64,000 nucleotides of DNA from Mizuhopecten yessoensis (lineage: Eukaryota), in contig NW_018407859.1 in the NCBI RefSeq assembly GCF_002113885.1, positions 191,654 to 255,653 on the forward strand, read 5' to 3'. The notes under the pieces were generated by a model that did no database searches, was not told the origin of the DNA, and saw only the letters and a program-made list of their open reading frames with translations. Each line of letters begins with the position of its first letter. The first letter of the stretch is position 1. Below are positions 6,461 through 45,603 of the stretch, piece by piece. The position numbers were made by a program, and so were the translations under genes.

Positions 6461-7381
6461 GGTGTGTAGAGAAGTGTTGATGTTCAGAATTTCCTGTGTG
6501 ATGTCATCGGATGCATTATTGTTTACCTTTAATATTGATCATAGGTTATTTAACCTACGAAAGGTTTTTTTACCAATATCTTTTTATGGACTCTTACAGA
6601 AAGGGCATACATGTCAACATAAGGTAGCACAGGTACCATATATTACCAGTGATAACCCCTTGTATGGTAATAAGCCCACCCCCACTATGCTTTACTTTTC
6701 GTGCAATGAGTGGGTGCCTGGTAATAAGCCCACCCCCTTTCTTCAAGTTCGTCGGCATGATTTTTTTATATTGTTGTACATCGTGCAATGTAAATTAAGT
6801 CATGCTAACAAGCAGAATATACCTGTACACTCCGCAGCGTCAAACATCTACTAGCATTTACAACATCATCGAAAAATGTGGCTGGCTGGCGATATCTGAC
6901 CTCTGACTCTGACATGTATGTATAAAAACTCAGTATACAGACCATTTAGATTACAATGAAATATCAGTTTAGATAACATATGGTCGTTTTATGAAATGAT
7001 TTAATGTACAATAGCAGCACACATATACATACAAACAGATACATATAAATGGCCTTGCGCTCTTGGTGTCCACTTGACACTGTAGACATCATCTCAGTGG
7101 ATGAGTAGAGGGTGGGACACTGTGTTGGTTTTAATTCTGAATATAACATCAGTTAATTAATTCAATTCTCTAGATCTGTGTCTTAGATACAAGTGCTTCA
7201 TAAAGAGGATGAATTGTGAAAATATTAAATTCCAAACCAACAATTTAATCAATTTACAACTTACGAATTTGCAAAATTTGATCGGGTCTGTGCTGCCATT
7301 AAGTTTATAAGGCTTAAGCTAAATCTAGGTCTGCAGTTTCTTCAAATAAACAACTTGGAAATGATAGGGTTGTGTAAAATC

Positions 7382-7453
7382 TGGTGTAGTACAGAAGAGA
7401 GAAAAAACTTCGACTACTACGCCCAACGGGACTTAGCTAGGTTTGAGGACAGA
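7382..7453 (+). pseudogene. Isolated HMG-box helix-3-like coding relic (WCSTEERKNFDYYAQRDLARFEDR)
   Basis: Fits the pattern EE[KR]xx[YF][DE]xxAx[KR]D[LK]xR[YF]E of HMG-box C-terminal helices. Locally CpG-containing. No convincing splice sites. Confidence 0.3.
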
Positions 7454-8039
7454 GTCATGGGAGAGGTTAAACAGATGTGTGTAATAGCTGAGCAACTAGA
7501 AGTGTGTGCAATGTTCATATTTCCTCACATTTTGGGAGGGAACGGTACAGTAGTACATTATCACACAAATGCAGTCTGCATCTTATTTACTGTGATAGAA
7601 TGTATTCCTCAATTTTTGAAATGTTTTCGCAATAATTCTACTTGAAAGTTAAAATAGCTTTCAACTTCTTGTCAATTTCACGAAGCTATCTGAAGCTTTA
7701 TGATGGTCTGCTCATGATTGAATAAAGTGCCACCAACTTTAAACACATAATGATAGAAAAATAAAGTTCATCGCTGTCATATGTAATTGAAATTTATTGT
7801 TGTAAATAATTGAAAGATTTTGTATAGATTGTCAAGTCGTTATGGTCAAAAAGAAAGACAGGCTTCATAGGGTTTCCATTTACCAACAGTAGAAATTTAA
7901 AACCACTGCTTATATAAAATTGCAAATTATTATGATTTTTCTGAAGCATATGGATGACTTTCAGGTATTTACTCTATATAAAAACAGGGGTCCTTGTCCT
8001 CAGAAAGTTTATAAACAAATGGGTATAGTTACTGGTAAT

Positions 8040-19042: not shown

Positions 19043-19708
19043 TAGTACGAATTATTCTGACGTTTTATCGACTTTTTTATATCGGTCTGTTGTCGATTAA
19101 CGTCAGAACTCCGACCCTCTATAATATATGCGGGAAATAAGCTACCCGCGCCTGGGTCGCTCTTCAAACTGATATTTTAGAAACAAATTGTCACTTTCAC
19201 ACACATGTCGCACATGGATCGAAAGATCTATTCTTTATGCACTAGGTGGTATCAATAACATGTTTCAAAGATCATTATAGGAACAGTATTTTCCAACGTT
19301 TTCTATACCAACCCATGTTTTTAATGGAAAGTAGGGCATTACCGAAGGTATTTTCCAACGTTATGACGGTGGCCGTCGAGATTTTAGTCACGTGGCATTA
19401 GAAGGCGGGGTTATCAAAAACGTAAAGTAAAACAGAGTAAGTTTGAAAAAATATGTTTTTAGTGATTGTATTGGTTGTTTGAGGCATGTAATTTATGTTC
19501 ATCTTGTGCATAAAGAATAGATCTTTCGATCCATGTGCGACTTGTGTGTGAAAGTGCAGGACGATTTGTTTCTAAAATATCTGTTTGAAGTGCGCTCCGG
19601 GAGCGGATCGCTTATTTCCCGCATATTATAGAGGGTCGGAGTTCTGACGTTAATCGACGACAGACCGATATAAAAAAAGTCGATAAAAGGTCAGAATAAT
19701 TCGGACTA
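19043..19708. mobile_element. Young MITE with about 200-230-bp terminal inverted repeats, TAG...CTA termini and a 9-bp TSD (AcademH-like)
   Basis: Left end tagtacgaattattctgac..., right end ...gtcagaataattcggacta. The arms align with high identity for about 200 bp. agttactgg is present at 19034-19042 and 19712-19720. CpG-rich relative to the flanks. Confidence 0.85.
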
Positions 19709-21859
19709 AGAAGTTACTGGATGATATAAAGGATTTATTTTTTATTTTATCAAGATTTTTATTTCAGTTTAACAAGGTGATTGCTGGTTTGAAGGTGTAC
19801 TGAATATCCAGACACAACACAATAAGATAGACAAAAATAATTGTGAACTTATCAAATAAAACAAGGGAACTGGATAAACAAGTGATATCAAACTTGTAAA
19901 AATGAGGTGTATAAATCTGCAGGGGAACCAATTATCTCAACAACAAGGCTTATTGGTGATTAGAGCTGGAGTACAAACTTGCATTGATTGGATATAATGA
20001 TCTGTTGGGAACATTTCATTGGAGGTAGATTTTATGTCGTGTTATTGGGTGTTATGTATCCCGCCTGCATATCTATCTATAGACTGCCCCCGTCCCCCAC
20101 CCACACCCCTCCCCAGTTTCTAGAATATTAAATCATTTAGAAAAAAATGAACTCCAATACTTTTGATCACTTAGATGTCTGATTCTACGTTCTAAACTAA
20201 GGGGGGATAAGCTAGTAGTAAAAGTTTTTTTTATTTTTTTATGGCTTAGACTTGTTGAGCTCTCACATGATCAGGCATGAGACAATTTTTATGTTGACTG
20301 TTGGAGTCTGGTTTACCTGTCTTCTACAATACATGAACAGAGGATGGGTGTGTTGTCTTACTCCATGCCCATTTAATGGTGGCATAATAGAGTTTCATTG
20401 AGCTTGTCTTCTTTTTTTCACCTGAACAGTCAGTGGATGTAGAGTCTATGGCGGCTTTCTAAATGTAAGCTGTCTTCTACATGGTCATAAGCTATAAGTC
20501 TGATATACTTTCCTGCAAGATGTTGATGTGTGGCTCAAAACACTCACTGAGGTGTCTTCAACATGGTCGTAACACTAAAGTCCATCCGATGGTCAAATTT
20601 CTTATTTATATTTCTGGCTTACTGAAATCTCTTTTCCAGATAGTTTGATAAAATCCTTGTTCAGCAAATGTCTGTATGACTGTCTACATTATCACATCTT
20701 GCATACATATATCAGGTTATAAAAGTTTCAATATCTAGTTTCATAGTAACAATTTGTGGCATTTATGATAGATTAAACTCTACTATAAGTCTATACCAAT
20801 AAACCTTATTCAGGGAAGTATGAAAAAACAGACAATTCTCCATCCAACTTGACACCTAAACCTTGAATGATTCTTGTCAGTCAGTGTAAGCATTTGCATC
20901 CTACCTAATTACCTCCGAGATTTACTGACATTTCATCTCAAAAAAACACTTGAAACAATTTCCATTTTTTCAGTGATAAAACTCATAACTACATATTTTT
21001 TTTTACATTCCAAACTGAAGTCCCCTCAGAGTTTTTGGTCTCGCTAGATATGGTGACTGGCTCGTTGTACGCTATGAGAAGGCTATTATTACCTTGGTTT
21101 ATTGTGTGTACTGTCAGTGTCATAATGTTCCTAGATAACATCCTAGACCATTGTTAACCAGCCGAGACTGGGTGTGAAACTCATAAGGGTACATACCTCT
21201 TTATATCCTGAAAAATTCAAATATATATATATATTAAAAAGGTCATTGAAGTCTTGCTCTTTGCTATCATGTTCTCATAAAGAATAGCACATTCTGCAAT
21301 AAAAAAGATGAGATAAGTGATACCAGAAAAATAGGAGTGACTTTTTTTGTGTAGTTAGGTTTGATATTCATAGATATCAAATGCCAGTAGAGAAATTAAT
21401 GCCAACTGTGATTACGGACCAGACAAATAAAAAATGAAAAGCATTTTGTATAACGAATATTGAAAACAGATGTGTGGACAAGAATGAGTGTTTTAGTGCT
21501 TTATGAGGTATAACATATATACCAGTGATCAGTTTGTGGTAAGGTTACGATCAAGAGTATTAATGAAAAAATAGATTCTATCAGATCTCTTGTACTTGTT
21601 AAATTTATGATCTGTGTAGATTTAAAAATGATTTATATTGCATCATATGGACAAAAGAACAGATATCAGGTGTACTATCATAATTTAAAATGATAGATGT
21701 TTTTGAATGGTATACCGAAGTAAAATGGTATAGCAGTGTTTAAGTACCTGTCCAAAAGCACCTGAATCACTTATATATTGGGTTTTGGATATCAAAAAAA
21801 AAAAATGTACTTAGGGTATTGACTACCAACTTTTTCAGTTGTTTTTNTCAAAAGTTTTC

Positions 21860-25082: not shown

Positions 25083-26077
25083 TATTGTAATGACCTGGTT
25101 CATTTAAGAATATTAAGAATATAGACCCTGAGCAGGTAATATCTGTTTTTCCCCAAACGTTCAGAAGTAAATATATAGACGTAAACTATTTCACTGCCTG
25201 TGTTTTGATATACCTATACATTGTATGTGACTGTGTACATGGTGCATGTATGTTTCACACATCTAAGGTATGTGTGAACTAGGAAGTTTTGAAGCAGAAA
25301 CATAACTACGTTATCTAAATAATATATAAATTAGGTGATAAATAGACAGATTGTCATATGTTCTGGGAATACAATTGGCGACACCATACAATTCCAGGTG
25401 CAGGAATTTGTATTGCTCTCTGTGTTTTGCTGCAAACCTTTTCTGATTAAAATTGCATACATCCTTTCTTCTAGTTTTCCAAAAATAGACTTTCCGTTCA
25501 ATTTGTTTACCACCACAATGAAATAAGATAACATACTGGTATTATTGTTACATTAACTCAATTCTATGTGTAAATCCTAGCATCTTCTCCGCAGTAAATC
25601 AATACTTGCCGCCTCAAAATGAAGTTTGGCTTCATATTTTAAACAATTGCAAAAATATTGATTTTACTGGTAGGCATGTGTTTTTGGAGCACAGATCATT
25701 GAAACCTGCACAGATCTAAATATATCACACTGGGATTTCCTGGCAAGAAGACTTATTGTTTTAATCAGAATCACGATAACTATTTTTACAAATGTACGTT
25801 GGATACGTGATAGTATTCGTGTGGAGATGAGAGCGTGTGATATGATGGTAAGGAAAACTTCTTACACTGGTGAATGCTTGCATCATGCATAATGTAATTA
25901 TTATTTTTTTAGTCACTAATTTTGATATAGTTATAAACCTTTACTTTGAAGACTGCAAAGGTTGTATGTTTTTGTCAAAGCTGTGTCAGATTGAATTAAC
26001 CAAGTCAAAAATGTACATATTGATGTATCCAAATTAAAAAATTGTTCAGTACTTGCTCTGCAGACATATGGTGGATA

Positions 26078-27660
26078 AGCTACCCTAGCTAGTACACCAG
26101 GGTTAGGTTAGTACCCCCTCTGATGTATCAGCTTTGTATTGTGTATGAGCTTCCCTAGTAGACCAGGGTTAGGGTACCGTAGTTCCCCATCTGGTGTATC
26201 AGCTTTGTATGGAGTATGAGCTACCCTAGTAGACCAGGGCTAGGTTAGTACCCCCTCTGATGTATCAGCTTTGGATGGTGTATGAGCTACCCTAGTAGAC
26301 AAGGGTTAGGTTAGTGCCCGCTCTGATGTATCAGCTTTGTATGGCGTATGAGCTACCCTAGTAGACCATGTTTAGGGTACCGTAGTTCCCCCTCTGGTGT
26401 ATCAGCTTTAAATGGTGTATGAGCTACTCTAGTAGACCAGGGTTGGGGTACCGTAGTTCCCCCTCTGATGTTATCCAAATTAAAAAATTGTTCAGTTCTT
26501 GCTCTGCAGACATATGGTGGATAAGCTACCCTAGCTAGTACACCAGGGTTAGGTTAGTTCCCCCTCTGATGTATCAGTTTCGTATGGTGTATGAGCTACC
26601 CTAGTAGACAAGGGTTAGGTTAGTGCCCGCTCTGATGTATCAGCTTTGTATGGTATATGAGCTACCCTAGTAGACCAGGGCTAGGTTAGTACCCCCTCTG
26701 ATGTATCAGCTTCGTATGGGGTATGAGCTACTCTAGTAGACCAGGGCTAGGTTAGTACCCCCTCTGATGTATCAGCTTCATATGGTGTATGAGCTACTCT
26801 AGTAGACCAGGGCTAGGTTAGTACCCCCTCTGATGTACCAGCTTTGTATGGTGTATGAGCTACTCTGGTAGACCAGGGTTAGGGTAGTACCCCCTCTGAT
26901 GTATCAGCTTCGTATGGTTTATGAGCTACCCTAGTAGACCAGGGATAGGTTAGTACTCCCTCTGATGCATCAGCTTTGTATGGTGTATGAGCTACCCAAG
27001 TAGACCAGGGTTAGGTTAGTACCCCCTCTGATGAATCAGCTTTGTATGGTGTATGAGTTACCCTAGTAGACCAGGGTTAGGTTATTACCCCCTCTGATGT
27101 ATCAGCTTTGGATGGTGTATGAGCTACCCTAGTAGACCGGGGTTAGGGTAGTACCCCCTCTGTTGTATCGACAGCTTCCTAGCCACAGATGGTTCTCTGC
27201 TGGCTAGGAAGCTGTCGATACAACAGAGGGGGTACTACCCTAACCCTGGTCTACTAGCGAAGCTCATACACCATACAAAGCTGGTACATCAGAGGGGGTA
27301 CTAACCTAACCCTGGTGTACTAGCTAGGGTTAGGTTAGTACCCCCTCTGAGGTATCAGCTTTGTATGGTGTATGAGCTCCCCTAGTAGACCAGGTTTAGG
27401 GTACCGTAGTTCCCCCTCTGATGTAGCAGCTTTGTATGGTGTATGAGCTAACCTAGTAGACCAGGGTTAGGTTAGTTCCCCCTCTGATGTATCAGCTTCG
27501 TATGGTGTATGGGCTGCCCTAGTAGACCAGGGTTAGGGTGGTTCCCCCTCTATTGTATCAGCTTTGTATGGTGTATAAGGTACTCTAGTAGACCAGGGTT
27601 AGGGTAGTACCCCCTCTGTTGTATCGACAGCTTCCTAGCCAGCAGAGAACCATCTGTGGT
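26078..27660. repeat. 66/69-bp minisatellite (about 20 units) with telomere-like GGGTTAGG motif, a duplicated left flank and an internal inversion (27183-27330)
   Basis: Unit tagtagaccagggttaggttagtaccccctctgatgtatcagctttgtatggtgtatgagctaccc. The reverse-complement block is directly visible. Confidence 0.97.
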
Positions 27661-42635: not shown

Positions 42636-45603
42636 TCTTTATGGTAATAACTAAATTGGTAACATTGACAGGTTTTGGTGTATGGTACATACAGCTTTTA
42701 GGCCCGGCTATATTGTAATCGTCCTTCCTTCAGTAAAAGGAACAGAACTATAAAAGTTGGAAGATGTTCAAGATAGGAACATTCTTCTGACCACAAAAAC
42801 CCTCTGACAAATATCACGTTTGACAAATGAATTCAGAAGAACAATAAAGTTGTAATCATGAAATATATGTATATAAATATGTGAATTTTTGTGATGTGAT
42901 GTTAAGCAATATTGATATTCTGCGAGTGTCATTCCACATGTTCTAAGTAAAAAAATGTTGTAGAGGAATTTTGGACCTAGAAGAGGGAACTTCTGACTGT
43001 GAAATGTTGATTAGTTGTCAGTGTTTTTGCTAATAGAATAATGATGATGGTCATCAGAGGACTCATTGAGTGTTGGCATGCATTGTTAGGAAACTGCAAT
43101 ACGTGTCCTAGATACACTCAACACGTGTTATTACTTACACAGAGCAGAACCGAGGTAATGTACCTACAAAATGTCACATGTTAGGATGCAAGTATAAATA
43201 TGGTATACCGCAGTTATACTGATTGAGGTATTTAGACCTGTACTCTAATCTAATTGCCTAAAAACATGTAATAAAAGTCTTTATGTAAATGAATAAATCT
43301 AGATTAACTACATAATGAATGTGGCTTAGTGAACAAATTTATTTTTTTGACATGTCCGTAGATACTTTGACCATTAGTTTATACATAAGCTTTTATCCAG
43401 AATAAATTCAAATAATTTGACAAATCTGGCGTATTGATCATTTTCGGCAAAATGTTAAGTAAATGACACCTTCTCATCTACCATAACGACAATGATTGGC
43501 TAAGCCTCTCCATTGGCCAACCAATCATAACTGGTTTTTCAATACAAAAATGTACATCATCCACCAAGATAGACAATTATTTGGGGAGGGGGTAAAAACA
43601 GAAATACCTGATATTAGTTGTGATGGACTGTTCGGTAATGAAAGGAAACCAGTTTTGAATGTTGATTCCAGTTTTTGTTTGAATTATATTTATTTTATTT
43701 TGATATGATCAATTACTAGTCAATCATCAGTCATTTGATAACAAGTCATGAAAGATAAAAATATTATGAGCAATTGCCAAGGCTAAGTGCATACTCAATA
43801 GGTTTGACTGCAATTAGGGATGCTGGAAAGAGTAAATACGGTAATAAAAAGCACATGATATTACGGTACTGTGATGTCTGTGCCCATCAGTGTGATGTGA
43901 GAAAGCATGTGTGTTGGAATGATAGACACGTACATTAAGTAAACAGACTAGTGTCCTTGTAGAGGATAATATGTAAAGGTATCAAGGTACCAACAGTTTA
44001 CTCCCGCCATAACTCAACTGTTACAAAAGTCCTACTCACCATAATATTCATCAAGCTGAAAAATACAGTAATGACGGCATCTCCTGTCCTCATTTATTAT
44101 GCCAAATATTGTAATGATTGACTGATGGAGTAATTTTTGCTGTATTTTGGTTTTTCTGTATCTGTTGGAGTATTTATTATCCCCTGTCGGCTGTGAAGAG
44201 GCACCATAATCTGTTGTTTGGGCTGGCGAATTTGAAGAGAGCTATACGGGAATGATAAAAAAAATCCTGGTAAAAACATATAGCGGATGCTAATAAGCAT
44301 TTTATGATACAAAATTCAGGAGAGTGATATTATGTGTTTTGACCACATATTTCTGGTAACTTGAATGAATTGGGGTGGGAGGGAGGAGGGTATTTTTTAT
44401 CGCAGATAAACCAAGTTTTAAGTTCCTTTTATATCGAAGTTTCTTTATAGATGAAAAGAATGGTTAAAAGTCCATATTAGTATCTATAATGGACAGATAG
44501 AAGGGTTTTGTTAAATTGATGAGACTTCTCAAAAGACCAATTTAGATGTTTTGAATGATTTTCAACCGGTATTGAGCCTACTTAGATATCTATCACGTCT
44601 GCCTTCAGGGGACAACTGAGGTCAGTAACACACTTTGATCTCCTTTGCTTACTTCAATATTTGTTTTATACATGTCAATAAAACCATTGACCTTCAGACA
44701 ACCTTTCCTTTATCAAACATCAGAATGTCGGGGGTGAAGATCCGCTGGAATTTGAAAAAAAAAAAAAAAGCCTTTCATAGATTAATTATATTTTCACTGA
44801 CATCAAATCAATATTTTTGTGGGCGGAAATGCTGTGGAACTTCGCTATTTTGGTCTTGTCTTTCGCTGTGTTTCGCTGAAGACACTAACTGTATGGGAGA
44901 TTTAGTATCCATTCAATACATTCAGTATCTAAAGTTTCAGTCTGAATCAAATATCCCTCCTACTCATTCAGTATTTAACGTCTTCAGTGCCAATTACCTG
45001 CCTCCTTACTGCCAGCTATAAGGCTCCGTGGGGGACAAAGAGTTACTTATCCTTTCCATTATTAACCTGCAACCAATCACTACATCTTAAAATTGTGAAA
45101 ATTGACATTAATTATGACTGCCTGGATTAACCAGGTTCTCAGGTTTTACCCTTTTTGGGAGACATTAACTTACACTCTATGAAACTGACATTTCTGATTA
45201 CTGTATCAACATTGACCGAGAAGTTGAGCTAATTTTTGAGTGTTTGCCAGGGAGCCTCCTTTCACGGCCAGTATTAAGTTTTGTTGATGTTCTGTCATCT
45301 AAGAATCCCTGAGGCTGACTGCCAGTATCTGTTTTATTTACACGTCCATGCTTAAGCTTCTTGGTTTACTCTGACCCTTGGTCAGCTGTTATTGGTCCAG
45401 ATTAAATTCAGACTTGGAGTTTCCTAGTTGGTATAACTGGGATTAGACTGGCCACCAGCCCAAAAGTTTTTATGAAGAATTTCTCGACTGCATTTTACTA
45501 CTAGCTTATCTCCCCCTAGTTTAGAACTTAGAATCAGACATCCCAGTGATCAAAATTATTAGAGTTAAAAAGATTTCTTAATAATTCAATATTCTAGAGA
45601 GGG

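Follow-up and report, generated by a model that had tools for sequence, protein, structure and literature searches.

Layout of the minisatellite locus

The window analysed in this study is a stretch of 64,000 nucleotides from Mizuhopecten yessoensis, and at 26067-27625 it contains an array with a period of 66 nt whose orientation changes within the array. Head-to-tail units in the 10-100 nt range at a single locus fit a variable minisatellite (VNTR). The locus is built of four blocks rather than three, holding 5.6, 9.6, 1.6 (inverted) and 4.5 units in that order, which are set out below together with their flanks and junctions:

26026..26090, forward strand: end of the left flank, copy 1, with A at 26051 and a degenerate unit tail over the final 24 nt
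26091..26471, forward strand: block A, five full units and one part unit, three of them of a 71-nt type
26466..26472, forward strand: junction 0, passing from unit to left flank at a common TGATGT(ATC) word with one extra T
26472..26536, forward strand: left flank, copy 2, with T where copy 1 has A
26537..27169, forward strand: block B, nine full 66-nt units and a 39-nt last unit, without any 71-nt unit
27170..27185, forward strand: first 16 nt of the right flank, including the junction 1 overlap at 27183-27185
27183..27330, reverse strand: inverted block of 148 nt, comprising array start, first unit, last unit and 34 nt of right flank
27326..27330, no strand assigned: junction 2 overlap of 5 nt, a word found in most units
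27326..27625, forward strand: block C, about 4.5 units, the second being a 71-nt unit, as it is in block A
27626..27659, forward strand: intact right flank; the weak hairpin seen at junction 1 can be formed by 27639-27659

The first-pass annotation of this window, made from the letters, had reported a flip of the array at 27183-27330, which we confirm as an inverted block of 148 nt. It had also described the block as the inverted array start, exactly two units and the array end. This makeup holds, but the count does not: the reverse complement of 27183-27330 reads as 9 nt of array start, one 66-nt unit, a 39-nt last unit and 34 nt of right flank, so that the repeated part spans 105 nt, or 1.6 periods. 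The forward-inverted-forward layout is likewise present in the sequence, but a recurrence of the left flank had been overlooked, and with it a direct junction at 26471/26472 (junction 0). More specifically, 26472-26536 repeats 65 nt of the left flank (26026-26090) with one substitution, and these are the only two copies of the left-flank end across the genome assembly.

The unit, the left flank and the right flank were each placed only at this locus in the assembly, these placements being lower bounds. An array forming part of a mobile element was ruled out because the flanks occur nowhere else in the assembly. Within the locus, the second unit of block A (A2) and the last unit are identical over their first 20 nt, and the four 'first' units differ mutually at 3-5 sites. 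The nearest-neighbour table of the units is too shallow for building a tree.

The genome assembly comprises 987.6 Mb in 82,659 pieces, and the scaffold that holds the window (C4532) has numerous N runs, with 93 tandem arrays along its 295,653 bases. Positions 1-190000 of the same scaffold were noted as very rich in unrelated minisatellites, tandem repeats making up 32% of the scaffold compared to 7-30% in six others. A Pfam scan of 140 of the 568 frames of at least 38 aa found no coding sequence near the locus. A 138-aa stop-free frame at 7229-7642 (forward strand) has a weak Pfam match to ERF (E 0.0019; 18.6 bits against a cut-off of 25) that is probably due to chance. A MITE-like element at 19073-19677 is bounded by long terminal inverted repeats, its arms measuring 55, 74 and 57 nt, and a first look gave 1,388 candidates for it in the assembly; 40 were scored, and all but one of the 41 listed matches have 93-100% identity. 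A 74-nt inverted pair at 20150-20223 and 45493-45566, 91% complementary and 25 kb apart, likely represents copies of a dispersed repeat. Outside tandem arrays, the search for fold-backs returned single hairpins only, the nearest pair being 601 nt apart and unrelated.

Strand switches at short shared words

All three junctions lie on short shared words, of 6-9, 3 and 5 nt respectively. At junction 1, the forward copy tracks the normal right flank to 27185 and the inverted copy starts at 27183. The strand switch in the right flank and the hairpin near 27192 described previously are thus borne out, with a centre at about 27193 and an overlap of 3 nt. The arms (27063-27185 and 27201-27323) are 123 nt long and 94% complementary, with a spacer of 15 nt. 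The switch back at junction 2 is equally clear, as the inverted copy runs to 27330 and the forward array from 27326; here the arms are 27236-27313 and 27326-27403, separated by 12 nt. The two resulting hairpins have folding energies of -66.9 and -63 kcal/mol (z -16.7 and -15.0), and 0 of 200 shuffles were as good in either case.

The donor hairpins, in contrast, are weak. Those at 27639-27659 and 26082-26103 are imperfect stems of 7 and 8 pairs that fold no better than shuffles (z -1.2 and -0.7). Nevertheless, the 3' base at the break takes part in a pair in the best fold of each donor, a state shared by only 11% and 9% of 161 nearby ends per strand. Each of the two inverted junctions looks like a 3' end that folded back on a weak hairpin, and the class of mechanism put forward by the first-pass annotation, strand switching at short interrupted inverted repeats, fits both of them by words and by folds. 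Junctions of this form can originate in living cells as well as in sequencing libraries.

Age of the inverted block

Compared to its forward counterpart, the inverted last unit with its flank shows no differences in 73 sites and the inverted array start shows one in 50, that is 1/123 sites (0.8%) for the block ends together. The 18 full units of the locus differ pairwise at a mean of 7.2 of 66 sites (10.9%; range 2-12). The probability of finding zero differences in 123 sites is 7e-7 at the divergence of the units and 1e-3 at half that divergence; these figures are slightly too small, since one difference did occur, and the conclusion holds.

The distance between these two levels of divergence suggests that the units had diversified well before the inverted block arose, and the block is young unless conversion has preserved its identity. 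An inversion left over from an ancestral two-unit state, as had been proposed, should be at least as diverged as units that arose later; the block ends fall far below that level, and the proposal is contradicted. Furthermore, because A2 and the last unit have the same 20-nt head, a slip or deletion can yield the content of the block from a long array, and the length of the block is therefore no evidence on the ancestral length of the array.

The locus in other individuals

We compared the locus with contigs from eight runs, corresponding to eight samples and covering all five studies, among 15 runs listed as containing the stretch. The samples form two sets of four, set 1 (including X2) and set 2 (including X3). 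Runs X16-X20 contain almost no words of the stretch. None of the eight samples resembles the assembled individual, from which set 1 differs by other letters in the flanks.

In all eight samples, a single contig (386-515 nt) leads from the last unit across the junction 1 site into the ordinary right flank. Similarly, a single contig (306-764 nt) leads from the ordinary left flank into the first unit in six of the eight; X3 and X4 have no left-flank contig among those listed for this short stretch. Had a junction allele been present at normal frequency, the graph would be expected to branch at these sites and such contigs to break. Relative to the right-flank contig, the depth of the deepest listed unit contig is 41 in X1, 40 in X2, 36 in X3, 43 in X4, 8.6 in X6, 8.1 in X9, 2.9 in X12 and under 1 in X11, a rough proxy rather than a copy number, by which a long array is not evident in two of the eight samples. 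The prediction of one or two units in other individuals fails on these data, with the unit contig at 8-43 times flank depth in six of the eight.

Contigs also cover the 71-nt unit A2 without gaps in all four samples of set 1, so this unit type exists in plain-ended arrays. Since the model of the first-pass annotation places the origin of the 71-nt type after the inversion, this result counts against it. In all four samples of set 2, contigs equal 71-75 nt of the inverted block, with no other letters. Bins of zero depth were found at 27170-27179 in all four samples of set 2 and at 27310-27329 in X3; in set 1 they lie at 27280-27363 (three of four samples) and 26440-26523 (two of four). Zero depth is not equivalent to absence, as contigs drop rare variants and the filter omits records, and other bins are filled by unit contigs. 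An apparent joint of opposite strands at 27300/27409 in set 2 was rejected as a junction: it consists of forward unit contigs split across the inverted block and the end of the stretch. In run X2, two contigs with loose ends (165 nt before, 255 nt behind) at 25633-25666 hint at an insertion or a shared repeat.

The comparison also bears on block B. The left-flank site that reads A in copy 1 and T in copy 2 is T in three and A in one of the four samples of set 1. At two sites, the first unit of block B is closer than the others to the first unit of other samples, and its last unit is a version of its own, with one difference. Units of 71 nt number 0 of 10 in block B against 4 of 10 in blocks A and C together (Fisher p 0.087). 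On these letters, block B looks like a whole second allele inside the first. Flank copy 2 begins 25-30 nt ahead of the polymorphic site, like the arm of a k-mer bubble, a likeness that was set aside because too many values of k would fit. All four array starts in the window carry T at the position of 26108, where all four samples of set 1 carry G; this may be a haplotype difference.

Orientation changes in other arrays

We surveyed 1.44 Mb of non-N sequence from seven scaffolds, a non-random draw consisting of the window's own scaffold and six long ones, and found orientation changes in 9 of 291 arrays (about 3%). Five of these nine, including the locus studied here, are forward-inverted-forward, with inverted blocks of 126-274 nt. 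The four further minisatellites of this layout are located at C4532:110-235, C4580:217250-217450, C4580:282525-282798 and C731:181541-181805, and the inverted block at C4580:282525 has internal repeats of its own. One of the nine is to be discounted, its unit being itself palindromic. At C5166:273352-274132, a 171-nt tandem unit is itself an inverted pair, folding back every 85-86 nt, and could be an amplified inversion. A survey for re-entry into the flank flagged 14 of the 291 arrays, mostly compound repeats, and was uninformative.

Flips are not limited to short blocks. A 39-nt minisatellite on the window's scaffold (L028, C4532:164432-168813) contains several flips, at least two of them at the same small palindrome in the unit, and both orientations are long in this array. 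An array on the same scaffold combines a 28-nt flip with inverted stretches of about 480 and 1,335 nt. Orientation-dependent expansion, in which only forward copies grow, is thus not the rule here. The studied inverted block has 82% of its 21-mers in the forward parts, the highest share among the five blocks longer than 100 nt; three of the others share 2%, 19% and 25% with their forward neighbours, and one is internally repeated. Low sharing and internal repetition in these other blocks suggest real, older inversions and argue against growth in one orientation.

Origin of the rearrangement

We favour, with middling confidence, a young and rare rearrangement by template switching, with the build of a small inverted triplication (SIT; DUP/IN/DUP), in a minisatellite that was already long. 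The event is likely recent, carried on one haplotype of an old, probably length-variable 66-nt minisatellite, whose two ends the inverted block copies almost exactly. Synthesis would have left block A at the 6-9 nt word common to the left flank, and the second allele would then have been copied, giving flank copy 2, block B and 16 nt of right flank. A fold-back at the weak right-flank hairpin would have led to copying of the last unit and a slip to the first, and a second fold-back at the array start would have allowed the array to resume as block C. The interior may have been skipped via the 20-nt head common to the second and last units, whether in the event itself, by later contraction or through assembly collapse. 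We infer the order of the switches, the origin of block B from a second allele and the existence of the junctions in the DNA. Switching of this kind in vivo is favoured by three word-guided junctions within 900 nt, by the lack of a gap nearby and by the similar flips elsewhere. The rearrangement implies no function. Long inverted repeats are unstable. For such structures, instability has been shown in E. coli (PMC13334657).

Several observations sit uneasily with this reading: the first units differ at 3-5 sites, which is more than expected of a very fresh copy, the hairpins of the donors fold weakly, the assembly is fragmented, and two population alleles in tandem have the appearance of a mis-joined heterozygous locus. 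A serious though somewhat less probable explanation is an assembly chimera, in which both alleles of a heterozygous minisatellite came to lie in one scaffold, joined during gap filling through library fold-back or PCR-switch reads; the 'two-unit' block would then result from collapse of the path that leads from the start of the array to its end. Such a chimera would account for flank copies carrying A and T, alleles found in one and three of four other samples, for a block B with its own first and last units and no 71-nt unit, and for the top-ranking 21-mer sharing of the inverted block. It is also consistent with a fragmented assembly that has gaps near arrays, 43 of the 291 lying within 600 nt of an N run, and with the chimeric reads that sheared libraries yield at natural inverted repeats (PMC10908179). 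However, it needs three separate rare chimeric joints in one 1.6-kb array with no N in or near it (the nearest are at 21847 and 45604), and flipped arrays lie near an N run in the same share (2 of 9) as all arrays. Assemblers are also not known to make joins on 3-5 nt by themselves, which counts against a chimera.

Improbable in our view is a contracted allele, consisting of the first and last units, that underwent a single small inverted triplication and whose forward copies regained units from a long homologous allele by unequal exchange or conversion. Its 148 nt would be near the 160-nt median of SIT inverted fragments and would thus require one event and no extra slip. By the contig-depth proxy, array length appears to vary widely among samples; inter-allelic transfer occurs at minisatellites, and complex inter-allelic exchange at human ones. 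Against this stands the fact that no sample showed a contig leading from left to right flank via a short array, with no listed piece spanning in the four samples of set 1; the forward copies would need to recover about 11 units without any change to the identity of the ends, and junction 0 would be left over. We consider it very improbable that the inversion took place at the first two-unit stage, that only the forward copies expanded and that other individuals later lost the inversion. While the block does join the unique start to the unique end over 148 nt, and reversion is possible in principle given the precise slippage loss described in E. coli plasmids (PMC13334657), this history is already largely refuted by the near identity of the block ends amid diverged units, by the plain right end in eight of eight individuals from five studies, by the 71-nt type in un-inverted arrays of all four set 1 samples, by long inverted stretches in another array and by an extra left-flank copy that lies outside the model.

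The assembly does contain the inverted block, which belongs to a known kind, is young and does not record how the minisatellite arose. As it stands, the locus is one non-coding repeat allele, private or artefactual, of little significance. Had the locus preserved the birth of a minisatellite and its strand-dependent growth, as claimed, it would have mattered, but the data contradict this. The useful remainder is that about 3% of the sampled arrays change orientation, several of them with short forward-inverted-forward blocks. If long reads confirm these flips, they would be natural small inverted triplications; if not, they would reveal a systematic minisatellite error in the assembly. It is also conceivable, though doubtful, that inverted blocks of about 100-300 nt formed by SIT-like switching are a recurrent heritable class of mutation in the minisatellites of this animal, the present locus being a fresh multi-switch case that captured a whole homologous allele with its flank. 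Five of 291 sampled arrays would then mean thousands genome-wide, and the animal would offer a natural population for measuring how such a rearrangement, known to date from mutant yeast and tumours, arises and is lost.

Comparison with known systems

In the papers open to our search, no inverted block of this sort was found for minisatellites or for bivalves beyond PMC13334657, and a search on false duplications returned nothing specific to this case. Small inverted triplications are described in PMC13334657 from FEN1-deficient yeast and tumours, with median segment lengths of 148/160/148 nt, a median spacer of 30 nt and a modal junction of 6 nt; none were found there in 15 human long-read genomes.

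Library fold-back chimeras (PMC10908179) resemble the locus in switching strand at a short inverted repeat and reading the spacer in reverse, but they are rare single-junction reads, whereas here three junctions are fixed in assembled sequence. The inverted triplications formed by ODIRA (PMC10766183) also use two switches at short interrupted inverted repeats to give a forward-inverted-forward product, and such repeats pre-exist at both ends of the present segment (27639-27659 and 26082-26103), where they fold weakly. ODIRA is, however, origin-dependent, proceeds through an extrachromosomal intermediate and is known from cases of kilobases or more. Nothing at this locus points to an origin, and a replication origin inside a 148-nt segment is unlikely. 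With FoSTeS/MMBIR and other iterative template switching (DUP-TRP/INV-DUP, PMC11293582; short switches, PMC5453318 and PMC7954356), the locus has in common several microhomology junctions and sequence copied from close by. Unlike those cases, it is on a scale of about 1 kb in a minisatellite, where slips by a unit are indistinguishable from later changes in length.

The closest likeness is to the small inverted triplications of PMC13334657. Both have an inverted fragment between direct copies (148 nt here, median 160), short spacers (15 and 12 nt, median 30), short reverse-complement words (3 and 5 nt, mode 6), fold-back geometry and a link with repeats. In contrast to them, the parts of this locus hold 9.6, 1.6 and 4.5 units, their second and next-to-last units differ, and triplication is limited to the ends. 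The locus also has the direct junction 0, which brings in a second flank allele, and it is known from an animal reference assembly alone. The rearrangement would work like a small inverted triplication but is not one in the strict sense, since its three parts do not repeat a single segment.
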